From the IMG/VR virus record IMGVR_UViG_2645727868_000012: 14,817 nt of DNA; one strand, written 5' to 3'. A model generated the notes under the pieces. That model did no database searches. It was given only the letters and a program-made list of their open reading frames with translations, and was not told the DNA's origin. Origin of the DNA: a virus. Taxonomy: Duplodnaviria > Heunggongvirae > Uroviricota > Caudoviricetes. Positions 1-14,817 of this stretch are shown here, in pieces (positions within the stretch are counted from its first letter, which is position 1; every line of letters starts with the position of its first letter). The position numbers and the translations under genes are program-made.

Positions 1-1293
<1,293 letters not shown>

Positions 1294-1315
1294 TACCCAA
1301 TTTTTCTGAATCTAA

Positions 1316-1335
1316 AAAGCGCCTGCGGGCGCTTT
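1316..1335 (+). terminator. rho-independent terminator-like hairpin downstream of serS
   Basis: Inverted repeat AAAGCGCC / GGCGCTTT with loop TGCG, 23 bp after the serS stop. Short T run after the stem. Confidence 0.55.
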
Positions 1336-1413
1336 AAGTAGAGGTTTAATCATTTGAAAATAAATGGATTTTATTTTTAAGTGTCCATATAACGTCCATC
1401 TTTGAATGCAAAA

Positions 1414-1449
1414 AGCCCACAGCTTCTATGCTGTGGGCTTTGTTTTTTG
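1414..1449 (+). terminator. strong rho-independent terminator hairpin
   Basis: Perfect 10-bp stem AGCCCACAGC / GCTGTGGGCT, loop TTCTAT, followed by TTGTTTTTT. Preceded by AAAAA, so could act in both directions. Confidence 0.6.
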
Positions 1450-1482
1450 GTGTCCTCATGAGTGAGGGAACCAAAAAGAAAA

Positions 1483-1504
1483 CCCGCAGTTTTTACGCTG
1501 CGGG
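1483..1504 (-). terminator. terminator-like hairpin, minus-strand oriented
   Basis: Stem CCCGCAG / CTGCGGG with 8-nt loop. On the minus strand it is followed by TTTTCTTTTT (complement of 1471-1482). Confidence 0.4.
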
Positions 1505-1930
1505 CTTGTTGTTCACGTCAACTGGAAATAGGGTGCCTTTTCGACCTTTACCCTGGCAACCGATTGACGGGGAAGTTGCCTTCCCCGTCGCGGTTTCCTT
1601 ACTGCTTACACTGTAAGAACGCCGCAAACTCCGCTCCCCAGAAACTCATCCGTATTTCACACAGCGAACCGTGCAGCATCCAGATGATGAGGATTGCCGT
1701 CACGCAGAATGTGATGGCCGTAAGCGATTTTTGCGACATAGCGCTTGCTCCTTTTTCGGGGAGGCGCTAACCTATCACTTGCTGAGGGTAGATGGTTAGG
1801 GCCTCGGGTTAACGTTAAAGTTGACTCGGGGCCTTTCCACATCTGGCCTTCGGGTATTCCCTCCGACCATCAGCCGAAAGGCACCCGCACGTAATCTATC
1901 GCTTTTTTGTTACTCCGGCAATTCTGCCTG

Positions 1931-2191
1931 TTAATTCTGAGATAAAGGCAAACTCATCTGATTGTTTCCCCTGTGTGAAGCTGGCAGATCATGCCACGGG
2001 ATACCTTCTGAAGAGTGAACGCCGGAGGCGTGTTTTGATGTGAATTTATGGAAAGCTTCCAGTGTTGAGAAGCATACGCCGCATTCCAGATTGTTACACT
2101 GGTAATACTTTTGCCGCACGGTGTTTGAATCATTTTCCGGACGACTGGTGCGGATACGGGCAGATGCGCCACAAAGCGGACAACGGAACAT
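1931..2191 (-). CDS. ogr: Ogr/Delta-family zinc-finger late-gene transcription activator homologue (86 aa)
   Basis: ATG at 2191 preceded by AAGGGAGG. Protein MFRCPLCG...YYQCNNLECG shows the C-x2-C-x24-C-x4-C spacing of the P2 Ogr family. C-terminal extension relative to 72-aa P2 Ogr. Confidence 0.8.
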   Translation of the reverse strand: MFRCPLCGASARIRTSRPENDSNTVRQKYYQCNNLECGVCFSTLEAFHKFTSKHASGVHSSEGIPWHDLPASHRGNNQMSLPLSQN

Positions 2192-2231
2192 AGCGACCTC
2201 CCTTAACGTGGTGCTGCCTATTCTAAGTTGC

Positions 2232-3341
2232 TCACTCTGTTTCCGCTATCCATTCCGGGATTTTTGCCTCAAGCTCAAGCTGCGTGGTAAAACCGCTGTT
2301 ATCAATGGTGTGCTCGGCTTTTGCAATGATCCAGTCCTGATTATCAATCTCGCTTTTAAATCCTGTTACCGTGCCATGCATTTCGGGGTAGAGTTCTGCA
2401 CGTCCACGCGCCAGCGTGATGGAGAATGATGCGGCTCCGCGTTGTAGTTGCTGCCACTTTGCCGCCGCTGCGCGTCTTGCTGCCTGCTCGTTCTGATAAG
2501 TCTTGCGTAACACAAACACATTGCCTTCCGCGCCTTCCATATAATCACCTTCGCGGCTGCTGCTTTTCTCCTTTTTGGGTTTTGGCGGTTTACGGCGTTT
2601 CACGCTGACTTTTTTCTTTTTCCCGTAATTAAGATCAAGCCAGTAAGCGCGTACCCCCGTATACGCTTCGCGGTCAGCAATGCGGAACTGATGGCGATCG
2701 CCGCTGCTGCGTGTGATGGCAAACGATGGCAACGGCTGGCCCTGTGCGTTCACGCCACCGCCGGGCATGATGAATAACAGATTACCGCTTTTTACCGTGG
2801 TGATTGCGCCCAGCATTTCCGCCATGCGCGTAAGGAAGGACATGTCGCTTTCTTCGGTCTGGTCGGCGTGGTCGATTTCGATATCCATCAGCATTTCGCT
2901 GATTTGCGGTTTCAGACCATACCGATGAGCGATGGCGGATACCACACGCTCAACGGTCACATCATGCCAGGACACCTCACGTTTAACGTTAAATTCATCC
3001 CGAAAATCTGCGCTTCTGGCTGAAACAGTCAGCCTGTCCGGCGGTCCTTCGTGAGCGATTTCATCAACAATGTAAGTGCCTTTTTCTGTCAGCGGTTCTC
3101 CTTTCCAGCCAATGAGAACCGTCAGGCGCGCGCCCCGTGGCGGTAGCTGCAACTGACCATCCGCATCATCCAGCGTGATGGTGAGCTGGTCCGCCTCAAA
3201 TCCCCGGTTGTCGGTCAGTGACAGGCTCATCAGGCGCTCTGCCACGCCTGACAGCGTTTTACCCTCCGCGAGAATATCAAAATCCGGCATTTTCACGGGG
3301 TCTGTGCCCTGACTGAGCAATTGCATGGTGGTGTCGGTCAT
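2232..3341 (-). CDS. D: P2 gpD-like tail protein (369 aa from ATG at 3341)
   Basis: Track ORF 2232..3473 begins at an upstream non-canonical start. The internal ATG at 3341 (MTDTTMQLLSQG...) has an AGGGAGGGAG Shine-Dalgarno and matches the gpD N-terminus as I recall it. Followed on the same strand by ogr, as in P2. Confidence 0.88.
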   Translation of the reverse strand: MTDTTMQLLSQGTDPVKMPDFDILAEGKTLSGVAERLMSLSLTDNRGFEADQLTITLDDADGQLQLPPRGARLTVLIGWKGEPLTEKGTYIVDEIAHEGPPDRLTVSARSADFRDEFNVKREVSWHDVTVERVVSAIAHRYGLKPQISEMLMDIEIDHADQTEESDMSFLTRMAEMLGAITTVKSGNLLFIMPGGGVNAQGQPLPSFAITRSSGDRHQFRIADREAYTGVRAYWLDLNYGKKKKVSVKRRKPPKPKKEKSSSREGDYMEGAEGNVFVLRKTYQNEQAARRAAAAKWQQLQRGAASFSITLARGRAELYPEMHGTVTGFKSEIDNQDWIIAKAEHTIDNSGFTTQLELEAKIPEWIAETE

Positions 3342-3498
3342 CTGCTCCCTCCCTGTGCGGCATGGTCGCATGTGCGTGCGGAGGGGGTTACTGCTTTTTG
3401 TTGTCGCCGTGGCGGGAGAACGGCGCAGGGGTGAGATTACGCGCGTGGTGGGTGATGATTGTTGCCGAATCATTTAACGGATACAAGGGGCTGAAGCT

Positions 3499-4683
3499 AT
3501 GAGTGAAACTCGTTTTCATGGTGCCCGTGTCACGGAAAGTACCGACCTGGTAACAGCGATTAATGATGTTGATTCCAGCGTTATCGGTATCGTGGCAACG
3601 GCGGATGATGCGGATGCGGAGCTGTTCCCGCTGAACAAGCCCACACTGCTGACCCGCGTCAATGACGTGCTGGGAAAATGCGGGACTACGGGGACGCTTT
3701 ATCGTGCGCTTAAGGCTATCGCAGACCAGGTGAGCACAAAAGTGATCGTCGTTCGCGTGGCTGAACACAAAGAAGAAGGCGGTAGGACGCAGGATCAACT
3801 GGTTATCGGTGGTTCTGAATCTGACGGCAGCTATACGGGGATGTATGCGCTGCTTGTTGCAGAGCAGGATGAAAGCATCGGATACCGTCCGCGTATTCTG
3901 GCCGCGCCGGAGCTGGACACGGAGGCGGTGACAAAATCCCTGTGCGTGATTGCGGGTAAACTGCGCGCGTTTGTGTATGCCACATGTCATGGTTGTAACA
4001 CGATGGCTGAGGCGATTACCTACCGCCAGAAATTCAACGAACGTGAGGTGATGCTCTTATGGCCTGACTTCATCGCCTACAACCCGAAAAGTGGCAAAAA
4101 CGAAACGTTCCCCGCGCCTGCTTATGCGTGCGGCCTTCGTGCGTACATTGACCATGAGCAGGGCTGGCACAAATCGCTGTCCAACGTTCCGGTTAAAAAT
4201 GTGCTGGGGATGTCGAGGCATGTGTTCTGGTCGTTACAGGCCGAAGACAGTGATGCCAACAGCCTCAACAACAAAGAAATCACGACCATTATTCGTCGTA
4301 ACGGGTTCCGCTTCTGGGGCAACCGCACACCGGAAACGAACGCCTACATCTTTGAGGTGTATACCCGAACCGCACAGGTGCTGGCTGATTCAATTGCGGA
4401 AGCGCAGTTTGAAACCATCGACAGTCCACTGACGCCTGCGAACGTGAAGGATGTTATCAGTGCCATCAGGGCAAAATTGGATTCGCTGGTTACTGCCGGG
4501 AAACTGATTGGCGCGGAGTGCTGGTATGACGTGGTGGATAACGGCACCACGGATTTACGTCAGGGGCGTGTGCGTATTCGCTACAAATATACGCCCGTTC
4601 CCCCGCTGGAAGACATGGAGCTTTACCAGACGTTTACTGATGAATTCTTTGGTCCCGCATTTGCGGTGCTGGGAGGTGCCTGA
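3499..4683 (+). CDS. FI: contractile tail sheath protein, P2 gpFI-like (394 aa)
   Basis: Length and sequence character of P2 FI sheath. ATG at 3499 with AAGGGG upstream. Stop overlaps the next start (TGATG). Confidence 0.95.
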   Translation: MSETRFHGARVTESTDLVTAINDVDSSVIGIVATADDADAELFPLNKPTLLTRVNDVLGKCGTTGTLYRALKAIADQVSTKVIVVRVAEHKEEGGRTQDQLVIGGSESDGSYTGMYALLVAEQDESIGYRPRILAAPELDTEAVTKSLCVIAGKLRAFVYATCHGCNTMAEAITYRQKFNEREVMLLWPDFIAYNPKSGKNETFPAPAYACGLRAYIDHEQGWHKSLSNVPVKNVLGMSRHVFWSLQAEDSDANSLNNKEITTIIRRNGFRFWGNRTPETNAYIFEVYTRTAQVLADSIAEAQFETIDSPLTPANVKDVISAIRAKLDSLVTAGKLIGAECWYDVVDNGTTDLRQGRVRIRYKYTPVPPLEDMELYQTFTDEFFGPAFAVLGGA

Positions 4684-5195
4684 TGGCTGTACCAAAACAT
4701 CTTCGCTTTTTTACGTTGTTTGTGGATGGTGAAAACGAAGTGGGTAAAGTGACATCCGTCACGCCGCCCAAACTGACGCGCAAAACCGACAGCTATCGTG
4801 GTGGTGGCATGATGGGAGCAGTAAGTATTGATCTCGGTCTGGACGACTCCGCGCTTGATGCGAGCTTTGTCATGGGGGGAGCTGTTCGTGCACTGTTCCT
4901 TAAGTATGGCGGCACGATTGACGGCACGCTGCTGCGTTTTGCGGGTGAATATTACACCGATGCAGAAAGCGATCTGTATGAAATCGAGATGCGCGGGCGT
5001 GTGACGGAAATTGATATGGGGGAGGCCAAACAGGGCGAAGCCACATCACACACTTACGCTGTCAAAAACACCTACTACAAGCTGAGCGTTAACGATCGCC
5101 CGCTGTGGGAAATCGACCTGTTGAACCACATCTACCGGAAGGACGGCAAGGACATTGTGCCTGACCGCATTCGTTCCGCGCTTGGGCTTGGCTGA
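4683..5195 (+). CDS. FII: tail tube protein, P2 gpFII-like (170 aa)
   Basis: GGGAGG 6 nt upstream of ATG 4683. Translational coupling with FI. Size and sequence as for P2 FII. Confidence 0.95.
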   Translation: MAVPKHLRFFTLFVDGENEVGKVTSVTPPKLTRKTDSYRGGGMMGAVSIDLGLDDSALDASFVMGGAVRALFLKYGGTIDGTLLRFAGEYYTDAESDLYEIEMRGRVTEIDMGEAKQGEATSHTYAVKNTYYKLSVNDRPLWEIDLLNHIYRKDGKDIVPDRIRSALGLG

Positions 5196-5250
5196 TAAGT
5201 AATATGCAGGCGGCGCAGTGCGTCGCCTCTGACTGAAAAGGAGACAACTG

Positions 5251-5625
5251 ATGAAAGATATCGATACTGAAACCCGGAATAACACCGTAGCGGATGATGT
5301 GACGTCAGGTGAGGATATGGCTGTCGAACGTGGTGTAAAACTTTCCCGGCCAATTGAGCGTGGTGCCGAAAAAATCACATATGTGGAGATCACCGGGGCT
5401 ATTGAGCAGGCGGGATCCCTGCGTGGTCTGTCGCTGTCTGATGTGCTGAATCTGAAAGCGGATACCATGTTCACGCTGTTGCCTCGCGTGACCTCGCCAC
5501 GACTGGATGAAGTGATGATTAAAAAAATGTCGTCACGCGATTTTATTCAGTTGTGCGCTGTGGCTGTAAATTTTATGAGCGAGCCAGACTCTGGCGCGAA
5601 GAGCGTGCAGGAGACGGCAGCGTAA
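5251..5625 (+). CDS. E: tail assembly chaperone, P2 gpE-like (124 aa)
   Basis: AAGGAG 8 nt upstream of ATG 5251. Position between tube and tape-measure genes. A -1 frame ORF overlaps its 3' end. Confidence 0.85.
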   Translation: MKDIDTETRNNTVADDVTSGEDMAVERGVKLSRPIERGAEKITYVEITGAIEQAGSLRGLSLSDVLNLKADTMFTLLPRVTSPRLDEVMIKKMSSRDFIQLCAVAVNFMSEPDSGAKSVQETAA

Positions 5626-5789
5626 TCACCCTGGTGTGCTTTGAGCACATCGAAGATCTGGTGGCGGATATTGCCGCCATTTTCAACTGGTCGCCCGCCG
5701 AAATCTTCATGATGACGCCCGGCGAAGTGGTTAGCTGGCGTGAGCGGGCGGCACTTCGCAGCGGGAATGCAGATAATGAAGACTCTTGA
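5251..5789 (+). CDS. E+E' fusion product predicted from programmed -1 ribosomal frameshift (about 179 aa if the slip is at 5568-5574)
   Basis: The -1 frame is open from 5523 to TGA 5787-5789 and overlaps the E 3' end. Candidate slippery heptamer A_AAT_TTT at 5568-5574 in the E frame. Analogous to P2 E/E+E' and lambda G/GT. Confidence 0.6.
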
Positions 5790-8583
5790 CATCCGGGTCG
5801 CTTTCAGCGCCGTTGACAGGCTGACCCGGCCTGCCGAAAACGCCCGCCGCCTGATGGGGCAGTTTGGTGACTCCATTCAGCGAACGCAGGGGGCGATCAA
5901 AAATCTCGAGCGTCAGGCGCGTTCATTTGAGCGCGCCCGCGACGCTGTCAGTAAAGCGGATGCGGGTATCGTGAAAGCACGACGCCAGCTTAACGCCCTT
6001 AATCAGTTACAACGCACGGGTACAGTGCTCAGCGAAAAACAACAAAAGCTGATGCAGCAGTTAAGCACCCGGCTTGAACGCCTGAATGAATCGCGCACAC
6101 GGGAAATTCAGAAAATGCGGGAGCTTGGCGGAGAACTGAAACGCCACGGCATTTCCCTGACAGGCAGCGATAACACCATCCAGCAGGCCATCAGACGCAC
6201 CGAACAATACAACAACCAGCTTGAACGCGAACGGCAGGCGCTTGCGCGTGTAACGCAGGCTCGTGAGCGGTATTCGCGCGCGCAGGAAACCGCGGGAAAA
6301 CTGAAAACAGGTGGTGCGCTGGCAATTGGTGCGGCAGCGGCGGGCGGCTATGCTGCCGGGCGTTTTTTGCAGCCCGCGATCGGGTTCGGCAAAGAGATGT
6401 CCCGCGTTCAGGCGCTGACGCGAATCGACAAAAACAGCCCGCAGTTTAAGGCGCTGCGTGAGCAGGCGTTAAAACTTGGCTCTGAAACACAGTTTACTGC
6501 GAGTGATGCCGCCAGTGGGCAGAGCTTTCTGGCAATGGCTGGTTTTACTCCGCAGGCCATTCAGGCCGCATTGCCCGGTGTTCTTAATATGGCGCTGGCA
6601 GGTGGCGTCGAACTCGGCGAGACGGCTGATATAGGCTCCAATATCCTCACACAGTTCAACCTGACAGCCGATCAAATGGACCGGGTTGGCGATACGCTGA
6701 CAGCGGCATTCACCCGGACCAATACTGATTTACGCGCGCTGGGCGAAACCATGAAGTATACCGGTCCGGTTGCCGCAAAACTTGGTATCAGTCTTGAAGA
6801 AGCGGCAGCCATGGCCGGGATGCTTGCCAATAATGGTCTTCGTGGAAGCGATGCTGGTACGGCCATGCGCGCAAGTCTGTCCCGCCTTGCATCACCGCCA
6901 AAAGCTGCGGCTGATGCGCTGAAAGAGCTGGGGGTGTCAGTTGCTGACGCCAGAGGCAAAATGCGCCCGATGGAGGATGTGCTGCTTGATCTCTATAAGG
7001 CGACACAAAAATACGGACAGGTGGACCAGGTTTCCTTCTTCAAGGACATCGCCGGAGAAGAGGCGTTCGTTGGTTTGCAGACGCTTGTTGCGGCGGCTGG
7101 TTCAGGAGAGCTGCAAAAACTGACCAGAGAATTGCAGGGGGCAAGGGGAGAGGCCGATCGCGTTGCAAAAGTAATGGCCGATAATCTTGATGGGGACCTG
7201 AAAAATCTCGACAGCGCATGGGAAGGTCTTCGTATTCGCATCAGTGATCTGGTTGACGGTCCGCTGCGTTCTGTCACGCAGTGGCTCACGCGGGTGCTTG
7301 AAAAAATCACCTCGCTGGCGCAGGCCCATCCGGTACTGACGCGCCAGCTACTGATAGCAGGCGGTGCGTTGCTGGCAATGACTGCAACGGTTGGCTCGTT
7401 GTCGCTGGCTATTGGTGTGCTTGCTGGCCCGCTGGCAAAACTGCGTCTTGGCTTTTCCCTCCTGACCGGTTCAATGAATGCTGTCAGACTCCTGCCAGCA
7501 CTATGGGGAATGGTGACGGGTTCCGTTTCGTTACTGGGGGGCGCTATCGGGGCGTTGTTCAGTCCGGTCGGCCTTATCGTGGCTGCGCTTGCCGGAGCTG
7601 CCGTTCTCATCTGGAAATACTGGGATCCCATCAGGGCATTTTTTGCCGGGGTGTTCAGCGGGATTATGGAAAGGCTGACCCCGTTGCGCGAAACCTTTGA
7701 ACGGTTTGGTCCTGTTTTTGACGCAATCGGGAGTGGGATCAGCCAGGTGTTTAACTGGTTTAAATCGCTGCTGTCTCCGATGGAGTCCAGCAAGGAAACT
7801 CTGGATAAATGTACCAGTGCTGGCGAGATATTCGGTAACGTTCTTGGCGGTGCGTTACAACTTGTTCTGACACCTGCAAAAATGTTGCTGGATACGCTGG
7901 CGTGGATACTTGAAAAGCTTGGTGTGCTTCCGGATGAAGCGGAAAGGGCGCGCAAGAAAATCGAAGACGCACAGCGTGCGGCCATTCTTCAGGACAAGGT
8001 TGCCTTGCTTCAGGGGGACCTGGCGAAAATCAATCCGCCGAAGCCTGTGGAAAATGGCAATGGCACCGGAGGTGATAACCCCAAAGACAATAAACCGCTC
8101 ACAGACAGCAATACCGGTACGCTGCGCAGACTCAGCAAAATTGCTGATAACACAGGTAAGCTGGTTGAGGAGACGAAAAAACGCATTGGCCCCGGCGATA
8201 TTGTCTTTAAAAACCTGCCCCGAGCACTTGCTGTTCGTGGGGAGTGGCAGGAGCGGAAGATTGCGCAGGTCAGTAAGCCTGCCCCCGCAATTAATATCAC
8301 ACCCGTGGTCCCGGCTCCGCTGCCTCCGGCGCTGGTCCCTGTTGTTGCGGCCAGCTCCCGCCCGGTGGCGGAGGCTATACGATCTCCAGTGGCATCAGTT
8401 CCTGTAACTTCCCGTAACCGGGAGCCTGTTGCCTCCGGATTTGGTGGTGAAATTCATGTTCATCTGCATAACGTTGTTACGCAGAATCCCCGCGAACTGG
8501 CGAAACTGGTCGGTGAAATGGTCAGGGCAGAAATGGAACGGCGCGCCCGTGCCGGGCGTGGCAGTTTTTACGATAAAGATTGA
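5767..8583 (+). CDS. T: tail tape measure protein, P2 gpT-like (about 938 aa)
   Basis: Long ORF after E/E' with coiled-coil-rich N-terminal half, hydrophobic central stretches and Pro/Ala-rich C-terminal region. Track start 5740 is GTG; first ATG is 5767 (alternative 5776). Start uncertain, overlaps the E' end. Confidence 0.9.
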   Translation: MQIMKTLDIRVAFSAVDRLTRPAENARRLMGQFGDSIQRTQGAIKNLERQARSFERARDAVSKADAGIVKARRQLNALNQLQRTGTVLSEKQQKLMQQLSTRLERLNESRTREIQKMRELGGELKRHGISLTGSDNTIQQAIRRTEQYNNQLERERQALARVTQARERYSRAQETAGKLKTGGALAIGAAAAGGYAAGRFLQPAIGFGKEMSRVQALTRIDKNSPQFKALREQALKLGSETQFTASDAASGQSFLAMAGFTPQAIQAALPGVLNMALAGGVELGETADIGSNILTQFNLTADQMDRVGDTLTAAFTRTNTDLRALGETMKYTGPVAAKLGISLEEAAAMAGMLANNGLRGSDAGTAMRASLSRLASPPKAAADALKELGVSVADARGKMRPMEDVLLDLYKATQKYGQVDQVSFFKDIAGEEAFVGLQTLVAAAGSGELQKLTRELQGARGEADRVAKVMADNLDGDLKNLDSAWEGLRIRISDLVDGPLRSVTQWLTRVLEKITSLAQAHPVLTRQLLIAGGALLAMTATVGSLSLAIGVLAGPLAKLRLGFSLLTGSMNAVRLLPALWGMVTGSVSLLGGAIGALFSPVGLIVAALAGAAVLIWKYWDPIRAFFAGVFSGIMERLTPLRETFERFGPVFDAIGSGISQVFNWFKSLLSPMESSKETLDKCTSAGEIFGNVLGGALQLVLTPAKMLLDTLAWILEKLGVLPDEAERARKKIEDAQRAAILQDKVALLQGDLAKINPPKPVENGNGTGGDNPKDNKPLTDSNTGTLRRLSKIADNTGKLVEETKKRIGPGDIVFKNLPRALAVRGEWQERKIAQVSKPAPAINITPVVPAPLPPALVPVVAASSRPVAEAIRSPVASVPVTSRNREPVASGFGGEIHVHLHNVVTQNPRELAKLVGEMVRAEMERRARAGRGSFYDKD

Positions 8584-8595
8584 GGAGTCATGGCC

Positions 8596-9084
8596 ATGAT
8601 GATGATCTACGGCATGTTTGTTTTTGAGCTGCGCACGCTGCCGCATCAGCAGTTACAGCAAAACAAAAGCTGGCGGCATGTGAAAAATGAACGCGTTAAC
8701 CGTTCAGCAAGCTGGCAGTATATCGGTGCAGGTGATGATCGCATCGTTCTTTCTGGTGTGCTTTATCCTGAAATTACAGGTGGCGAAGTGTCGCTGTCGC
8801 TGCTGACCACGCAGGCGTATACAGGACGACCCTGGCCTTTGATTGATGGCGTCGGGCAGATTTACGGCATGTATGTCCTGACTGAAACGAATACGACCCG
8901 CTCCGAGTTTGATCGCTACGGTAAGGCGAAAAAGATAGAATTTTCACTGACTCTTGAACGCTGTGATGAGGATTTGCGGGAGCGCCTGCAATCCTCATCG
9001 TTCAGTGATATGCTGTCCGGCTTCAAAGATAAGGTGACATCATCTCTTAACAGCGCGGCCAGTTCAGTTAAAGGGCTGTTCTGA
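8596..9084 (+). CDS. U: tail protein, P2 gpU-like (about 162 aa)
   Basis: GAGGAG at 8582-8587. ATG 8590 is only 2 nt from it, so ATG 8596 (MMMIYGMF...) is the more likely start. Sequence character of P2 gpU. Confidence 0.9.
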   Translation: MMMIYGMFVFELRTLPHQQLQQNKSWRHVKNERVNRSASWQYIGAGDDRIVLSGVLYPEITGGEVSLSLLTTQAYTGRPWPLIDGVGQIYGMYVLTETNTTRSEFDRYGKAKKIEFSLTLERCDEDLRERLQSSSFSDMLSGFKDKVTSSLNSAASSVKGLF

Positions 9085-9093
9085 TTTAACACA

Positions 9094-9123
9094 AAAACCG
9101 CTAATGGTCAGATTAGCGGTTTT
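9094..9123. terminator. bidirectional terminator hairpin between convergent U and invertase genes
   Basis: Perfect stem AAAACCGCTAAT / ATTAGCGGTTTT with loop GGTCAG. T-rich on both sides. The 3' arm overlaps the invertase stop codon. Confidence 0.6.
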
Positions 9124-9712
9124 CATTTTCCTGAGTCTGCCCGGTTGTTTCTTCAGTCTGTATATCGCCTACAGGGTGATAACGATAAATCGTCGATGTG
9201 CCAATGCCGTAAATTATTGCCAGTTGTTTTCTGTCGTGCCCGTTTTTGATTAGCCTTGCTATTTGCTCATGCTGTTCTTTTGTCAGCTTCGGTCGACGTC
9301 CGCCTGTGCGCCCCCTTGCGCGCGCTGCCGCCAGCCCGGCCAGTGTACGTTCAACAATTAATTCACGTTCCATTTCAGCCAGGGCACCCATCACGTGGAA
9401 GAAAAAACGCCCCATTGGAGAAGATGTGTCTATGCTGTCGGTCAGACTGCGAAAATTAATCCCTCGCTCCCGTAGTTCCCCGACGAGAGAAATCAGATGT
9501 TTCATGCTTCGCCCGAGGCGATCCAGTTTCCAGACAACCAGCGTGTCACCTTTTTGAAGGCGCTTTAAAGCGCGTTTTAATCCCGGTCGGTCTGTCTTTG
9601 TCCCGCTTAATTTATCTTCAAATATTTGTTCACATCCTGCACAAACAAGAGCGTTTCGTTGCAGGTCTGTATTCTGGTCATTTGTTGATACCCTTACATA
9701 GCCAATCAGCAC
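9113..9712 (-). CDS. pin: site-specific DNA invertase, serine recombinase of the Pin/Gin/Cin/Hin family (199 aa from GTG 9712)
   Basis: Protein ...LIGYVRVSTNDQNTDLQRNAL...LVVWKLDRLGRS... has the catalytic Ser motif and C-terminal helix-turn-helix region typical of Gin-family invertases. Track start 9730 is TTG; GTG 9712 has a GGGAGA Shine-Dalgarno 6 nt upstream. Lies beside the crossover site. Confidence 0.93.
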   Translation of the reverse strand: MLIGYVRVSTNDQNTDLQRNALVCAGCEQIFEDKLSGTKTDRPGLKRALKRLQKGDTLVVWKLDRLGRSMKHLISLVGELRERGINFRSLTDSIDTSSPMGRFFFHVMGALAEMERELIVERTLAGLAAARARGRTGGRRPKLTKEQHEQIARLIKNGHDRKQLAIIYGIGTSTIYRYHPVGDIQTEETTGQTQENENR

Positions 9713-9766
9713 ACTGAATCTCCCGTCCAAAAGCGCAAATCATGCCATGCAGGCCAGAAACGGCCA

Positions 9767-9792
9767 TTATTTAAAACCTCGGTTTACGAGAA
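9767..9792. promoter_or_regulatory. left crossover site (gix/pix-type), 26 bp
   Basis: TTATTTAAAACC TC GGTTTACGAGAA: two 12-bp half-sites around a central dinucleotide. Matches the Gin gix sequence as I recall it at about 22 of 26 positions. Coincides exactly with the outer boundary of the inverted repeat. Confidence 0.8.
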
Positions 9793-10488
9793 CTCGGCAC
9801 AAGCGGGGAGAAAATACCGTTACTCAGTACAGCGAATACCTGGACCAATCGACAAACATTCAGCGGTGGCCTTTCTGGGGAACTGTCCGGCAATGCCGCT
9901 ACTGCAACAAAGCTGAAAACAGCACGAAAAATTGCTGGAGTTGGTTTTGATGGTTCTAGCGATATTTCAATTAGTGCCAAAAATGTCAATGCATTTGCAC
10001 TCCGACAAACAGGTAATACTGTTAATGGTGATACATCCGTTGGATGGAATTGGGATAGTGGTGCATATAACGCCATGATTGGTGGTGCATCTGCATTAAT
10101 TCTTCACTTTAATATAAATGCTGGTAGCTGTCCTGCCGTACAATTCCGTGTGAATTATAAAAATGGTGGCATTTCCTACAGGTCGGCTCGTGATGGTTAT
10201 GGGTTTGAATTAGGTTGGTCAGATTTCTATACCACGACACGAAAACCTTCAGCGGGAGATGTTGGTGCATATACGCGGACAGAATGTAACTCAAGGTTTA
10301 TTACAGGTATTCGCCTTGGCGGTCTGTCATCTGTTCAGACATGGAATGGTCCCGGCTGGTCTGACAGGTCAGGTTATGTCGTTACGGGTTCAGTTAACGG
10401 AAACCGTGATGAATTAATTGATACAACACAGGCAAGGCCAATTCAGTATTGCATTAATGGGACGTGGTATAACGCGGGGAGTATTTAA
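9775..10488 (+). CDS. tail-fibre C-terminal variable cassette (Sv-like), open frame without start codon; about 237 codons
   Basis: Frame is open from just after TAA 9772-9774 to TAA 10486-10488. First in-frame ATG is 10075 (the track ORF). Ends with the ...INGTWYNAGSI motif shared with the opposite cassette. Confidence 0.75.
   Translation, partial: NLGLRELGTSGEKIPLLSTANTWTNRQTFSGGLSGELSGNAATATKLKTARKIAGVGFDGSSDISISAKNVNAFALRQTGNTVNGDTSVGWNWDSGAYNAMIGGASALILHFNINAGSCPAVQFRVNYKNGGISYRSARDGYGFELGWSDFYTTTRKPSAGDVGAYTRTECNSRFITGIRLGGLSSVQTWNGPGWSDRSGYVVTGSVNGNRDELIDTTQARPIQYCINGTWYNAGSI
9777..9891. repeat. left arm of the inverted repeat (about 115 bp, 3 mismatches to right arm)
   Basis: Direct comparison of 9777-9891 with the reverse complement of 12416-12530. 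Encodes the shared fibre segment [40 protein letters not shown]. Confidence 0.85.
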
Positions 10489-10490
10489 CG

Positions 10491-11024
10491 ATGATGCACT
10501 TAAAAAACATTACTGCTGGCAACCCTAAAACAAAAGAGCAATACCAGCTAACAAAGCAATTTAACATCAAATGGCTTTATTCAGCTGATGGAAAAAACTG
10601 GTATGAGGAACAAAAGAATTTCCAGCCAGACACTTTGAAAATGGTCTATGACCATAACGGCGTTATTATTTGTATTGAAAAGGATGTTTCAGCAATTAAT
10701 CCGGAAGGCGCAAGCGTCGTTGAATTACCTGATATTACAGCAAATCGCCGGGCTGATATTTCGGGGAAATGGATGTTCAAAGATGGCGTAGTGGTAAAGC
10801 GAACTTATACCGAGGAAGAGCAGAGGCAACAAGCGGAAAATGAAAAGCAGAGCCTGTTGCAACTTGTCAGGGATAAAACTCAGCTATGGGACTCACAGCT
10901 ACGGCTGGGCATCATTTCCGACGAGAATAAACAAAAATTAACCGAGTGGATGCTCTATGCGCAGAAAGTCGAATCCACAGACACCTCCAGCCTGCCAGTA
11001 ACATTTCCCGAACAACCTGAATGA
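10491..11024 (+). CDS. tfa: tail fibre assembly protein (Tfa / Mu U-like), 177 aa
   Basis: ATG 2 nt after the cassette stop. About 175 aa MMHLKNI... protein with the conserved Tfa N-terminus. Paralogous to the minus-strand copy. Confidence 0.9.
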   Translation: MMHLKNITAGNPKTKEQYQLTKQFNIKWLYSADGKNWYEEQKNFQPDTLKMVYDHNGVIICIEKDVSAINPEGASVVELPDITANRRADISGKWMFKDGVVVKRTYTEEEQRQQAENEKQSLLQLVRDKTQLWDSQLRLGIISDENKQKLTEWMLYAQKVESTDTSSLPVTFPEQPE

Positions 11025-11027
11025 GAC

Positions 11028-11057
11028 AAGGCCCGATAACGGGCCTTAATTTTTATT
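11028..11057. terminator. bidirectional terminator between the convergent tfa genes
   Basis: Stem AAGGCCCG / CGGGCCTT, loop ATAA, followed by AATTTTTATT. Confidence 0.65.
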
Positions 11058-11580
11058 CAGGCTTTTGTGGCCATTCAGGATTTGCCGTATCCACACGGTT
11101 GACCAGAACACTGTAGCGTTCCCATGCTTCCAGTCGTGTGCGTTCCTCGTCTGTTGCCATATTCAGCCTGACAGCGCGTTCCAGCGGCTGGATGACTGAT
11201 TCAGCTTCGGAAAGCAATGCGGCCTTTTGTGATTCGGCCTGTTGTTGCTGTTCGTCAGCCGTATAAATCCGTTTAACCACAGCTCCGTCCTTAAACATCC
11301 ACTTACCGGAATCATCGGTCCGACGATTGGCCGTTATATCGGGAACCTCGACGACGCTAAAACCTTCGGGATTAAGCGTGGAGGCATCTCTGGTGATGGC
11401 GACAATAATATTATTTTCATCGTAAACAATCTTTATGGTGTCTGGCTGAAAGTTTTTCACTTCCTCATACCAGTTTTTTCCGTCCTCAGAGTAAAGCCAG
11501 ATAACTCCGTGTTTCTTTGTTAACTCATACTGTTCCAGTGTTTTAGCATTACCCGCTTTTATGTTCTTTAAGTGCATCAT
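11053..11580 (-). CDS. tfa: tail fibre assembly protein (Tfa' / Mu U'-like), 175 aa
   Basis: ATG at 11580 one nt after the upstream cassette stop. Same family as 10491..11024, with a divergent C-terminal half. Confidence 0.9.
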
Positions 11581-11581
11581 A

Positions 11582-12574
11582 TTAAACGCTCGCTACATTA
11601 TACCAGGTGCCATTTATATACTTTTGAACGGGTCTGTAATAAACACCCGCTATATTATCGGCAGAGTTAGACCCTGTATCCTGAACATTAATACCAGACA
11701 ATACATGACCTGAAGGGCACTGGAAATTCCATGTTCGCCAGTTGTTCACTCCATAATATTGCTGTGAACCAAGTCGAACATCTTTCACATAACGGGAATC
11801 AAAGTTACCGTAATCCGAGGGATTAACACGCCCCGTAATATTTATGGTCTTATTACTTTGAATGCTTCCGGGAACAAAGCGCATAACATGGACGTAATTA
11901 GCATAAACATCCAGATTACCATCGCCATTTTGTTTAAAGCCCGTGTCATTATCACCCAATACAATCGAATTACCGCCAAGAGCACTGGATGTTCCGATAC
12001 CCAGTGCACCATTCAGTTGACCACCAGATAACGGCAGTGCACCAACATCTCCTGCTGAAGGTTTTCTGGTGGTGGTGTAAAATTCGGACCAGTCGGCTTC
12101 AAAACCATAACCATCACGGGCTGAACGATAAAAAATACCGCCATTTTTATAATTAATCCGAAACTGAGCTGCAGGACAACTTCCGTCTCCCATATAAAAA
12201 TGAATAATTAACGTTGATGCACCACCAATATTTGCGTTATAGGCTCCGCTACTCCAGTTCCATCCAACTGCTTTATCATTCGCAACGGTGCTTCCTGTTT
12301 TCCCTAAGGCAAACGCACCAACATGACTTGCTTTTAATGTGATATCGGAGGAACCATCAAAAGCCACATTGCTTATTTTCCTGGCAGTTTTTAATTTTGC
12401 AGCTGTAGAAGCATTGCCGGATAGTTCACCAGAAAGGCCACCGCTGAATGTTTGTCGATTAGTCCAGGTATTCGCTGTACTGAGTAACGGTATTTTCTCC
12501 CCGCTTGTGCCGAGTTCTCGTAAACCGAGGTCGCTCTTGTTTGTGCAGGATATGAACAAATATTTGAAGATAAA
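11582..12574 (-). CDS. tail-fibre C-terminal variable cassette (Sv'-like), open frame without ATG; about 330 codons
   Basis: Minus-strand frame open from just after the stop at 12575-12577 (plus coordinates) to the stop at 11582-11584. Only a TTG at 12559, just outside the crossover site. Shares the scaffold with the left cassette, then has a longer, different tip. Confidence 0.75.
12416..12530. repeat. right arm of the inverted repeat
   Basis: Reverse complement matches 9777-9891 with 3 mismatches. Lower identity continues further into the cassettes. Confidence 0.85.
12515..12540. promoter_or_regulatory. right crossover site, hybrid: canonical inner half and centre, non-canonical outer half
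   Basis: TTCTCGTAAACC GA GGTCGCTCTTGT. The inner half and centre are identical to the left site. The outer half is invertase coding sequence, not a gix half-site. Confidence 0.6.
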
Positions 12575-12664
12575 TTAAGCGGAACAAGGACAGGCCGACC
12601 TGGATTAAAACGTGCTTTAAAGCGCCTTCAAAAAGGTGACGCACTGGTTGTCTGAAAACTGGAC
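12530..12664 (+). pseudogene. 5' fragment of a second Pin-family invertase gene (about codons 21-60), frameshifted and truncated
   Basis: Translation [41 protein letters not shown] then a frameshift. About 90% nucleotide identity to the corresponding part of the intact invertase gene. Homology stops near 12664. Confidence 0.8.
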
Positions 12665-12799
12665 TGACTGGTTCACTGTATGCGGCATCTTGTCGTGCTG
12701 GTGGTGGAAGCCTAGAAAAAGTATCGGGTGTTACTGAACCGTGTTGATACATCAACTGCACCTGATATTGAGTGGCCTACGAACCCTGTCAGGGAGTAA
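12665..12799 (+). pseudogene. 3' remnant of a tail-fibre-assembly-like gene (in-frame TAG, indel)
   Basis: Translates to ...[32 protein letters not shown], matching the C-terminus of ORF 13579..13848 with an in-frame stop. No start codon. Confidence 0.6.
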
Positions 12800-12848
12800 T
12801 CATTGGGATTATGCCGCAGCACGTCTTAAGCAAGAACGTGCTGCGGTT
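12696..12848. repeat. direct repeat copy 1 (tfa 3' end plus downstream hairpin)
   Basis: About 90% identical to 13751-13898. Contains an 11-bp perfect stem CCGCAGCACGT / ACGTGCTGCGG at 12814-12846. Confidence 0.7.
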
Positions 12849-12853
12849 GGATG

Positions 12854-13522
12854 CTATTTTTTCCCTGAAGCGGAAAACATTACTACAGTACCTTGAACCT
12901 TGGTTTTAACATTCTCGAAATGCTCTGAGAGTATATGTGTTAAGCCTTCTTCGGAATCTTTTGTGTTTGAAAAGATGCCTTTCTGATTGTAAATGCGCAT
13001 CAGTTTTTGACCGAAGCTATTGTGCACAACTCCATCGCCAAGAATTGTGGCTCCGTATAGAGTTCCATCGTCAGTTAAGGCCTGCGCCGCATTGCGTATT
13101 ACACAGCTTTTTGTAGATATATTTCCAGGCAGGCAGTGAAGAAGGTAAAACATGGAAATGGAATCAAATTGACCATGTAACGCCGCGGGATAAGGTTCAA
13201 AAACATCATGGCTAATTTTATGTTTAATTTTTGATTCCCCAGCCCTTGTAGATGCCGCGTTCAGGCTAGCTTCGTTCAAATCCATTAAAGATATCAGACT
13301 ACTCTCAGGTACGTGAGTAAGGTAAAACCCAGTTCCAACACCAATATCCAGATGGTTGTTACCTACATGTTCCAGAAAGTGTGGAAGAAGGTGTTCCTTT
13401 GTAGGACATCCCCATGCAAGCCGATTTGATACTCCCAAAACCCACCAGTCATAAAGCTTTAGGGTAAGTGGTGTGTAAATTTTAGCCCCATCATCTGTGT
13501 TTTTTTTCATTGATTTCACCAT
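12854..13522 (-). CDS. class I SAM-dependent methyltransferase, substrate unknown (222 aa)
   Basis: Motif I HLDIGVGTGFY, acidic post-I SLMDLNE, motif II-like FDSISMFYLLHCLP, motif III-like LTDDGTLY. No DPPY/NPPY or PCQ DNA-methyltransferase motifs. Markedly AT-rich relative to the flanks. ATG 13522, alternative ATG 13510. Confidence 0.85.
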   Translation of the reverse strand: MVKSMKKNTDDGAKIYTPLTLKLYDWWVLGVSNRLAWGCPTKEHLLPHFLEHVGNNHLDIGVGTGFYLTHVPESSLISLMDLNEASLNAASTRAGESKIKHKISHDVFEPYPAALHGQFDSISMFYLLHCLPGNISTKSCVIRNAAQALTDDGTLYGATILGDGVVHNSFGQKLMRIYNQKGIFSNTKDSEEGLTHILSEHFENVKTKVQGTVVMFSASGKK

Positions 13523-13578
13523 GTTATAGTTTTATTTGTGAATTAAATCAATTATGGCGATGAATTACAAGGGGTTAA

Positions 13579-13848
13579 ATGCTGCCGCAGCATAGCGATA
13601 TTGAAATAGCCTGGTATGCTTCGATACAGCAGGAGCCGAATGGCTGGAAGACCGTCACCACACAGTTCTACATCCAGGAATTCAGTGAGTATATTGCGCC
13701 ACTGCAGGATGCTGTAGATCTGGAAATCGCAACGGAGGAAGAAAGATCGTTGCTGGAGGCATGGAATAAATATCGGGTATTGTTGAATCGTGTTGATACA
13801 TCAACTGCACCTGATATTGAGTGGCCTGCAAATCCTGTCAGGGAGTAA
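13579..13848 (+). CDS. short tail-fibre-assembly-like protein (89 aa, Tfa C-terminal domain homologue)
   Basis: C-terminal 50 aa (...[37 protein letters not shown]) resemble the Tfa C-termini in the invertible segment. N-terminal 40 aa unique. ATG at 13579. Confidence 0.65.
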
Positions 13849-13898
13849 TCATTGGGATTATGCCGCAGACACGTCGTATGCAGGAACGTGCTGCGGTT
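13751..13898. repeat. direct repeat copy 2
   Basis: Matches 12696-12848. The hairpin here is imperfect (one bulge). Confidence 0.7.
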
Positions 13899-13962
13899 AG
13901 TTTGTGAGCTTTCGATAGTGGTTGTTATTTTTGCCCTTATTTGTTCCGGAGGCCATGGTTCA

Positions 13963-14133
13963 ATGGTCCGTCTGCCCCCTGTGGTGATGTCAGCAAAATC
14001 AGCCACTGCGCGAACCACAATAGCCCGGGAAGATGCTGAAGATCACCAGGTAAAGCTGTCAGCGCAGAAACTGGAAGAACTGCTCGCATCAATGGTTAAG
14101 GATGAGGTTGATCGCAATGATGGGATTTATTGA
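13963..14133 (+). CDS. hypothetical small protein (56 aa)
   Basis: GGAGG at 13948-13952, ATG 13963 (10-nt spacing). Charged and helical-looking sequence. Track ORF starts further upstream at a non-ATG codon. An in-frame extension past the TGA is noted in findings. Confidence 0.4.
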   Translation: MVRLPPVVMSAKSATARTTIAREDAEDHQVKLSAQKLEELLASMVKDEVDRNDGIY

Positions 14134-14227
14134 CGTCAGCGAGAGCAGAAGGAAGAACTGAATAACCTGAATGATTTACGCTCAATCAGAGCGATGGCGA
14201 TTAGCGGCAATCACGCTCGATAAAATT

Positions 14228-14250
14228 AACCCCGGTGATCATCCGGGGTT
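14228..14250. terminator. bidirectional terminator between the small ORF and the Rha gene
   Basis: Stem AACCCCGG / CCGGGGTT around palindromic loop TGATCAT, followed by TTTTG on the plus strand and TTAATTTTA on the minus strand. Confidence 0.65.
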
Positions 14251-14259
14251 TTGCATTCA

Positions 14260-14817
14260 TTAAAACCGCATCAACCTTTCCACCAATTGTTCTTTACGGG
14301 CAACGATCCACCCATGTTGCTCCAGATAAAATTTAAACCGTTCCAGCGTGCATACCATCGCATCGGCGGGGACTTTTTCTGTGAACTCGACCTGACCGTG
14401 TTTATCGAAGTGGATCAGTAATGCGCATCCATTATTTGGGGCGGGGGAGTTTTGTGCTGCAGGAGGACGTTTGTGGAGTTCTTCTTCCATTGCGTTAAAT
14501 TTTTCAATGTAAGCTTCTTTTAGTCTGGCTGCTTTTTTGCCAGTAAATCCCATTACGAGGAACATGAAGCCGTCTTTTGTGATCAGGTAGCATCGTGATT
14601 CACGTTCTGCGCCGTTGCCAATTTCGACAGTCTGAACATCGGCCGAAAAGTTGGCTGATGTAAATTCGGGAGAGCAGTCGAGTGTGTCAATCTTAGCTAA
14701 AACGTGTTTATGTTGTTTATCGAAGTAGTCGGCAACAGCTTGAGAGGTGGTAACCAGGCGACCATCTTTGAAAAAGACTTTTGGTGACTCGTTAGAAAAA
14801 GTTATAGCTGTATTCAT
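14260..14817 (-). CDS. phage regulatory protein, Rha family (185 aa); start codon at the window edge
   Basis: N-terminal region ...VTTSQAVADYFDKQHKHVLAKIDTL...RCYLITKDGFMFLVMGFTGKKAARLKEAYIEKFNAME fits the Rha/antirepressor-like domain pattern. The ATG is the last 3 nt of the window, so the true start could lie outside. Confidence 0.8.
   Translation of the reverse strand: MNTAITFSNESPKVFFKDGRLVTTSQAVADYFDKQHKHVLAKIDTLDCSPEFTSANFSADVQTVEIGNGAERESRCYLITKDGFMFLVMGFTGKKAARLKEAYIEKFNAMEEELHKRPPAAQNSPAPNNGCALLIHFDKHGQVEFTEKVPADAMVCTLERFKFYLEQHGWIVARKEQLVERLMRF

Follow-up and report, generated by a model that had tools for sequence, protein, structure and literature searches.

The ybcY-tfaX module of an E. 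coli lambdoid prophage arm: a probable moron methyltransferase gene between two copies of a partially duplicated tfa 3' end

The 14,817-nucleotide (nt) stretch of DNA from IMG/VR virus record IMGVR_UViG_2645727868_000012 (Caudoviricetes), referred to here as the window, carries near its right end an AT-rich gene for a class I S-adenosylmethionine (SAM)-dependent methyltransferase that lies between two direct repeats. The question raised by this locus is what the gene is, how it came to be bracketed in this way and what its product may do. Judged by sequence identity, the gene is ybcY and the adjoining 89-amino acid (aa) open reading frame (ORF) is tfaX, a module that is already annotated and very common in E. 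coli; the coding sequence has 99.0% nt identity to K-12 ybcY (NC_000913 582152-582818). As such the feature is an ordinary one, a catalogued prophage cargo gene in its usual place. We consider it likely that the region represents the ybcY-tfaX module of a DLP12-type lambdoid prophage, in which ybcY is a moron encoding a methyltransferase that would act in the lysogen and in which the repeats would serve as recombination arms. A moron is a transcription unit of its own, without which the phage can still grow. The coordinates of the features are collected in Table 1.

The methyltransferase ORF, METHYLTRANSFERASE, is intact and encodes 222 aa, matches Pfam Methyltransf_12 with 37.5 bits against a cutoff of 30, and is covered by PHROG 2132 over 218 of 218 positions (E = 4e-157); PHROG 2132 and the tfaX family, PHROG 2341, are both families of unknown function. 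The true start is probably the ATG at position 13510, giving a protein of 218 aa beginning MKKNTDDG, since the first -10 element abuts the annotated ATG, the homologues start at the second methionine and a GGTGA precedes this codon. The original prediction described the gene as AT-richer than the tail and host genes, and this is borne out by a GC content of 41.1% (36% at third codon positions), within the lowest 1.5% of 669-nt windows, compared with 54.6% for the P2 tail genes, 52.5% for serS, 50.2% for the whole window and 46.6 and 46.0% for the 500-nt flanks. The value is scarcely below that of the adjacent tail-fibre variable DNA (43-44%) or rha (44.6%), and a GC content of 39-44% is found throughout the family, Enterobacter and Citrobacter included, indicating a family trait. 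ybcY is oriented antisense to the tail genes and is separated from tfaX by a divergent AT-rich spacer. On the ybcY strand this spacer holds two promoter-like matches, TTGATT (13551-13546) placed 17 nt from TATAAC (13528-13523), and TTAACC-16-CATAAT (13578-13551). For K-12, Shimada et al. (2014, PMC3946193) list the ybcY/tfaX spacer among constitutive RpoD promoter sites with H-NS, identified by systematic evolution of ligands by exponential enrichment (SELEX), and quote TTGATT and TATAAC 17 nt apart, as in the window. Of the features expected of a moron, ybcY has an atypical composition (41% GC versus 46-55%) and is absent from kin such as lambda, HK629/630 and ev099; the promoter-like sites and the stable hairpin at the 3' end are candidates for a promoter and terminator of its own. 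On the preferred reading, ybcY, situated directly behind stf-tfa, would be transcribed antisense from an AT-rich promoter region of its own, a site of H-NS binding in K-12, and transcription would end at the hairpin that also closes tfa. Our analysis supports the original prediction of moron-type cargo at a tail-fibre terminator and shows in addition a promoter-like region for the gene, with the partial tfa 3' duplication on either side.

The gene is present in 3832 of 5426 complete E. coli genomes (71%), in up to four copies each and always with at least 95% identity, and at least 80% of the whole repeat-gene-repeat unit is present in 3423 of the 5426. In 89% of the ybcY-bearing genomes the gene lies between tfa and tfaX, and in every non-K-12-lineage record sampled across the identity range it is annotated as an intact class I methyltransferase. 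It also occurs in sequenced, viable lambdoid phages (2G7b, ev243, PhiR26_1, PhiR29, PhiR30 and others). The order in PhiR26_1, whose annotation names YbcY, is stf, full-length tfa, ybcY (minus strand), tfaX, an alpha/beta hydrolase gene (minus) and ompT (minus), and in 2G7b and ev243 the tail-fibre genes are followed by ybcY (minus), tfaX, hydrolase (minus), ompT (minus) and int (minus). The ompW-integrated prophage of HH97 is less rearranged, with stf, full tfa, ybcY, tfaX, a DUF4376 remnant and an ompW fragment. The arrangement of tfa, ybcY on the opposite strand and tfaX is therefore shared by DLP12, the phages and HH97; in the window the left tfa is a stub, and in E. coli sequence type 131 (ST131) most of the upstream tfa has given way to an invertible tail-fibre segment together with a dead invertase gene of the Pin type. 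Comparison with relatives lacking the gene had been proposed as a check: lambda, HK629, ev099 and others keep a single tfa 3' end and have no ybcY.

The two repeat copies align with 88.5% identity over 147/148 nt with one 1-nt indel (BLAST, E = 3e-46), close to the approximately 90% predicted and above the 80% that had been set as the lower limit. A repeat search resolves the alignment into a block of 118 nt (12702-12819 versus 13751-13868, 89%) and one of 29 nt (12820-12848 versus 13870-13898, 90%). The predicted coordinates of copy 2 hold, and those of copy 1 need a correction at the left end, which lies at 12702 and not at 12696, bases 12696-12701 being part of an invertase remnant. Each copy consists, as proposed, of a tfa 3' end and a hairpin. 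The tfa stub of copy 1, about 33 codons long, has an in-frame TAG (12713-12715) where phage PhiR26_1 and DLP12 have TGG and ends at its natural stop (12797-12799). Copy 1 as a whole shares 97-99% identity with the ends of two full-length genes, PhiR26_1 tfa and DLP12 tfaD. Its hairpin has a perfect 11-bp stem (12814-12824 / 12836-12846; -28.6 kcal/mol, z = -4.4) and lies 6 nt beyond the ybcY stop codon. Copy 2 forms the 3' part of the intact 89-aa tfa-like ORF, as predicted, and its hairpin has a one-base bulge in the stem. The first 31 residues of tfaX are unrelated to Tfa and are followed by the C-terminal part of a Tfa, 58 residues long: residues 32-89 share 88% identity with PhiR26_1 Tfa over its positions 137-194, and residues 31-86 align to the last 56 of the 131 Pfam Caudo_TAP positions (75-130, E = 6e-25), so that the match to the Tfa domain is confined to C-terminal model positions; the Prokaryotic Genome Annotation Pipeline (PGAP) annotates tfaX as a tfa pseudogene. 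When the full-length PhiR26_1 tfa is used for comparison, the duplicated segment measures 227 bp (window 13672-13898) with 89.9% identity, and the intact phages likewise have a 227-bp repeat, the left copy being the end of a full-length tfa. The left repeat is just 147 bp long in the window because the upstream tfa was cut to its last 33 codons by fusion with the invertase remnant, to which the stub is joined at 12702 through approximately 4-5 nt of microhomology.

The alignments thus identify the repeats as a partial duplication of the conserved tfa 3' end with its hairpin and not as target-site duplications. Direct repeats around a compositionally distinct gene might also be read as the target duplications or attachment sites of a discrete mobile element that moved by transposition or site-specific recombination. 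For this locus such an origin is very improbable: the repeats are 147-227 bp of tfa coding sequence plus hairpin, much longer than any target-site duplication, the repeat search of the window found no terminal inverted repeats around the cassette, and there is no transposase or integrase inside or beside it. The adjacent invertase is a dead fragment, and the sites of this invertase are inverted repeats located elsewhere. In addition, the core of the cassette occurs without the repeats in non-phage contexts.

This core, a unit of 732 bp, was delimited by Salmonella contigs with plasmid (ccdAB) or insertion sequence (IS) neighbours, which share 87.6% nt identity over exactly 12848-13579 and have no tfa flanks; this interval takes in the final hairpin base of copy 1 at one end and the first tfaX base at the other. 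It is the only part of the cassette common to non-phage mobile contexts; weaker versions are found on another Salmonella island (80%) and in a Citrobacter prophage remnant beside sodC, dinI and sopA (73%). Outside the core the boundaries vary between lineages. The window, PhiR26_1 and DLP12 are near-identical until 13803-13825, inside copy 2, and then continue into three unrelated sequences, and the outer ends sampled across genomes lie at 13608, 13803, 13825 and 13898 on the right and at 12702 and 12814 on the left, that is, in or at the edges of tfa-derived sequence. These positions point to the conserved tfa end as a recombination joint from which the cassette could be moved with either neighbour. 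Nearly every tail-fibre module of the lambdoid, P2 or Mu type ends in this sequence. With the last approximately 230 bp of tfa partially duplicated, the two copies would therefore provide ready-made homology arms, and general recombination at tfa ends would let the cassette travel with either neighbouring module, which may explain the variable outer boundaries and the constant 732-bp core. The anatomy would then illustrate how a conserved tfa end can act as a joint at which cargo behind tail-fibre genes is shuffled.

Three phages were considered as possible empty sites and rejected, ev099 and 2B8 because their downstream DNA is unrelated and Ayreon (MF807953, locus 3287-3587) because it carries an internal ybcY deletion. 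In Ayreon, 12702-12889 is joined directly to 13549-13665, so that 12890-13548 is missing and the hairpin and the tfaX-upstream region are kept. No right-hand tfa copy follows 13549-13665, so the tfaX N-terminal part (13580-13665) moves together with the ybcY region whether or not the right repeat is there. The lambdoid phage 2B8 has a 79-aa tfa fragment amid the type III secretion system (T3SS) effector genes NleG and EspM2 (2B8 locus 2919-5738); short tfa 3' fragments beside cargo may be a recurrent feature behind tail-fibre genes and not specific to ybcY.

The protein has the hallmarks of a class I methyltransferase. Motif I, D58-I-G-V-G-T-G64, and the acidic residues D80, D105 and D119 are invariant in 30 homologues with identities down to 56%, across which about 60 residues are invariant, and the family has an invariant N-terminal motif, Y-x-P-x2-L-x2-YDWWVL-x3-N-x2-AW-x-C. 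The AlphaFold2 (AF2) model (predicted local distance difference test score, pLDDT, of 90) is confident except for the first 13 residues and has the seven-strand alpha/beta fold. The best Foldseek match is the phosphatidylethanolamine N-methyltransferase 8ys9 (E = 5e-12), the structure matches listed are mostly small-molecule, lipid or natural-product methyltransferases, and searches of the PDB by sequence and profile returned only juvenile-hormone-acid methyltransferase and UbiG (E from 1e-3 to 6e-6). Orphan DNA methyltransferases are frequent phage cargo. That YbcY is such an enzyme, serving anti-restriction or epigenetic control, is nevertheless scarcely credible, as the protein has neither catalytic motif IV, (D/N/S)PP(Y/F/W), nor PCQ/ENV and no PP dipeptide whatsoever, no Pfam DNA-methylase matches it at E<=0.01, the PADLOC defence-system scan gave nothing significant and there is no DNA methyltransferase among the nearest structures listed. 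The Pfam, motif and Foldseek results agree with the original prediction of a class I enzyme without DNA-methyltransferase motifs. A characterised housekeeping or defence methyltransferase was also considered and rejected: with PADLOC negative, the NCBIfam models CpaM, RquA and PmtA score 16-18 bits against cutoffs of 175-390, and the profile and structure checks proposed at the outset gave no match to a well-characterised housekeeping methyltransferase.

Against mobile homologues that are 73-88% nt identical, ybcY has a ratio of nonsynonymous to synonymous substitutions (dN/dS) of 0.11-0.17, which indicates purifying selection. Relatives with at least 50% identity are found in 527 species-level genomes, including Enterobacterales, Pseudomonas, Xanthomonadales, Pasteurellaceae and some Oxalobacteraceae. 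They are standalone genes, and distant homologues with no phage tail genes nearby are located on the chromosomes of Enterobacter, Salmonella, Yersinia, Erwinia and Pseudomonas. Assignment of a substrate from the gene neighbourhood was tried, first with seven individual loci and then across 29 genera with 80 loci, whose ORFs up to 6 kb from the gene were clustered all against all. It was rejected, as only generic short-chain dehydrogenase/reductase (SDR), LysR and ATP-binding cassette (ABC) families recur, at varying positions. A gene for an esterase, lipase or alpha/beta hydrolase does lie within a few kb of the methyltransferase gene in the lambdoid phages, Enterobacter, Erwinia and Yersinia; these belong to different families that form no cluster, and their proximity may be due to chance or may hint at methyl-ester chemistry. 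The modelled fold hints that YbcY could be a cytoplasmic or membrane-peripheral small-molecule or lipid methyltransferase active in the lysogen, where it would modify a host metabolite or membrane lipid (lysogenic conversion) and not DNA. The conclusion reached before, that the substrate is not assignable from sequence, stands, and in the searchable literature ybcY and tfaX were found only in lists and context descriptions, with no functional study.

A number of observations weigh against the reading of the region as a moron with a lysogen-acting enzyme and recombination arms. The ybcY of DLP12 in K-12 is a pseudogene, in contrast to the intact gene of the window, and the H-NS listed at the K-12 spacer may reflect silencing of ybcY. 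A ybcY deletion mutant behaved like the wild type in the single assay found, one of Hha toxicity (PMC2408971), and the deletion in Ayreon indicates that the gene is dispensable for the phage. There is no T-run beside the hairpin on either strand, so it is at most a plausible terminator. The relatives of ybcY have no conserved partner gene in the 80 loci. A synthetic query for the repeat-to-repeat deletion product had no match with at least 80% coverage among the 5426 genomes, so that the copies of a single locus can recombine with each other only rarely, if they do so; the evidence suggesting an arm function for the repeats is of one kind, the clustering of breakpoints.

Several of these points would also fit a ybcY that is silenced and decaying, a passenger that persists only through its physical position between the tail-fibre module and selected cargo such as ompT, with the repeats as debris of module replacement that has no role. 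The K-12 pseudogene, the H-NS listing, the internal deletion in Ayreon and the Hha assay count in favour of such a passenger, as do the 95-100% identity of the E. coli copies, which suits recent spread better than long maintenance, and the abundance of invertase, tfa and DUF4376 pseudogenes in the surrounding DNA. We nevertheless regard a decaying passenger as unlikely, because the ORF is annotated as intact in every non-K-12-lineage record sampled, the low dN/dS extends across the mobile variants alongside the invariant residues of the 30 homologues, and the same core is kept on plasmids and islands without tail genes. A service to the phage itself, in which YbcY would methylate the tail fibre, the Tfa chaperone or another component of the virion or host receptor during lytic growth, is quite improbable. 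It would account for the placement between tfa and tfaX in 89% of ybcY-bearing genomes and for tfaX being a conserved ORF with its own PHROG, yet ybcY is oriented against the late operon, with a promoter region of its own, homologues occur on plasmids, IS islands and chromosomes without phage tail genes, Ayreon has lost a large internal part of the gene, and the fold is nearer to small-molecule enzymes than to protein methyltransferases.

The moron reading, which we prefer, can be taken one step further. YbcY could be an unrecognised lysogenic-conversion enzyme that methylates a Proteobacteria-wide metabolite or membrane lipid, for instance a phospholipid head group or a carboxylate, and that has spread on tail-fibre modules by way of the tfa 3' arms; this extended proposal is tentative and on balance doubtful. 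If it were true, ybcY would be among the commonest phage-borne metabolic genes of E. coli, on the basis of its presence in 71% of complete genomes. Most of the approximately 3800 complete E. coli genomes that carry ybcY have it in intact form, and relatives with at least 50% identity extend from Pseudomonas to Pasteurellaceae. A defined YbcY substrate would thus annotate a large orphan family as well as a phage cargo gene that ranks among the most widespread in E. coli.

The surroundings of the cassette require care, as the window is by its matches a composite of two prophage loci joined at 12531/12532. Bases 1-12531 are 100% identical to a P2-like prophage remnant beside serS in ST131, and for bases 12532-14817 the match, again 100% identical, is the right arm of the lambdoid prophage inserted in ompW beside the trp operon of ST131 (e.g. 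EC958). The two source loci lie approximately 540 kb apart in the same orientation in every complete genome examined, and no complete genome covers more than 85% of the window. The junction is absent from complete E. coli genomes, GTDB species genomes and Joint Genome Institute (JGI) metagenome contigs, and the ORF spanning it has no record in the protein-position index. It is located 3 nt beyond the central GA of a pix/gix-type crossover site (TTCTCGTAAACC-GA-GGT/CGCTC, the slash marking the junction), omits 122 bp of the native lambdoid locus and shows no microhomology. If loci 540 kb apart were joined by deletion, much of the core chromosome would be lost, which leaves two options: an assembly chimera, or a rearrangement on a chromosome with a different arrangement. 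Three ST131 prophages have been reported to exchange parts of their tail-fibre regions in invertase-linked events (bioRxiv 10.1101/2022.05.07.487787), so the junction could be a real event. The cassette itself is unaffected by the junction, and users of the window should bear in mind that neither serS nor the P2-like tail genes on its left flank it natively.

Left of the stub, the invertase remnant has 65% identity to the intact invertase of the window, stops included (tblastn), and is labelled 'recombinase family protein, incomplete' by PGAP in EC958. The interior of the invertible segment holds two opposed sets of fibre-tip and tfa genes (10075-11024, plus strand, and 11053-12559, minus strand). 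In approximately ten ST131 genomes (e.g. strain 1162invT2) the lambdoid fibre segment and its counterpart in the serS prophage agree at 100% identity over window 12100-12531, compared with 99.6% for the EC958 type, which suggests segment exchange or gene conversion between the two prophages. The P2-like remnant (1931-9084) is scrambled, with ogr and a truncated gene D on the minus strand left of a plus-strand FI-FII-E-T-U block; in the reference locus the fibre, I, J, W and V genes follow on the minus strand to the right, and the FI-U block looks inverted relative to the canonical P2 order. A Hok/Gef-family toxin gene (1599-1739, minus strand; reference locus 7599-7739) lies between serS and the prophage remnant; no Sok-type RNA was found in the window at the Rfam gathering threshold, at which the scan of the whole window returned no family. 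On the right flank of the lambdoid arm, an ORF at 13852-14133 matches PHROG 7703/1141, and a strong intrinsic-terminator-like hairpin (14228-14250, minus strand; 8 bp, 6 of them GC, followed by a T-run) lies just downstream of rha (14260-14817, minus strand).

Table 1. Positions in the window of the cassette, its repeats and the neighbouring prophage features
Feature	Coordinates	Strand	Evidence or remarks
ybcY, class I SAM-dependent methyltransferase	12854-13522	-	Pfam Methyltransf_12/23/25/11; PHROG 2132; identity to K-12 ybcY; AF2 model
Divergent AT-rich promoter region, ybcY/tfaX spacer, 56 bp, 26.8% GC	13523-13578		Composition; promoter motif scan
tfaX, intact 89-aa ORF	13579-13848	+	PHROG 2341, 88/88, E = 4e-61; Caudo_TAP, C-terminal only
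Core transferable unit, ybcY with 57 nt of upstream promoter region, 732 bp	12848-13579	-	Homology to non-phage contigs
Direct-repeat copy 1, last ~33 codons of tfa and hairpin 12813-12847	12702-12848	+	Repeat search, BLAST, alignment, folding
Direct-repeat copy 2, tfaX 3' end and bulged hairpin ~13862-13896	13751-13898	+	Repeat search, BLAST, alignment, folding
Pin/Gin-type DNA invertase pseudogene, 5'-truncated, ~codons 27-86, two in-frame stops	12532-12701	+	tblastn; PGAP
DUF4376 tail-fibre-type gene remnant, internal stop, right flank of lambdoid arm	13945-14223	+	PGAP in EC958 and HH97
Composite junction 12531/12532	12515-12540	+	Left half of pix/gix-like site TTCTCGTAAACC-GA-GGT joined to invertase codon 27
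Intact Pin/Gin-type invertase gene	9113-9730	-	Adjoins invertible tail-fibre segment
Invertible tail-fibre segment	9776-12531		Inverted repeats 9776-9932 / 12375-12531, 157 nt, 90%; crossover sites TTCTCGTAAACCGAGGT

When compared with known systems, the enzyme stands apart from its nearest structural relatives. To PmtA (8ys9), the Plasmodium phosphoethanolamine methyltransferase, juvenile hormone acid methyltransferase and UbiG, YbcY has 11-21% identity with template modelling (TM) scores of approximately 0.6, and the curated NCBIfam models fall far under their cutoffs (18 bits versus 180), so that membership in any characterised subfamily of small-molecule or lipid methyltransferases is not supported. 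The cassette likewise differs from transposable elements and integrative cassettes in having tfa-derived repeats with neither flanking inverted repeats nor a live recombinase, and from Gin/Pin/Cin invertible segments in lying outside the inverted repeats 9776-9932 and 12375-12531, its own repeats being direct. It resembles the lambdoid cargo found behind tail-fibre genes, such as lom, bor, ompT and the T3SS effector loci of Shiga toxin-producing E. coli (STEC) prophages, since ybcY too is a probably independent unit of atypical GC content at the end of the late operon; those genes have known envelope or virulence roles, whereas none is assigned to YbcY. The closest counterpart is DLP12 of E. 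coli K-12, in which ybcY (b0562) and tfaX (b0563) occur in the same order, with tfaD followed by ybcY on the opposite strand and then tfaX. DLP12 shares 97% nt identity with window 12702-13825 and has the same hairpin and the same promoter spacer. Besides the inactivation of ybcY in K-12, three differences remain: the upstream tfa is full length in DLP12 and reduced in the window to 33 codons fused to the invertase remnant; tfaX ends in the window with the canonical tfa end and hairpin, and in DLP12 and PhiR26_1 with unrelated DNA past approximately 13803-13825; and the module resides in the ompW/trp-adjacent prophage in ST131, whereas DLP12 lies beside appY-ompT.

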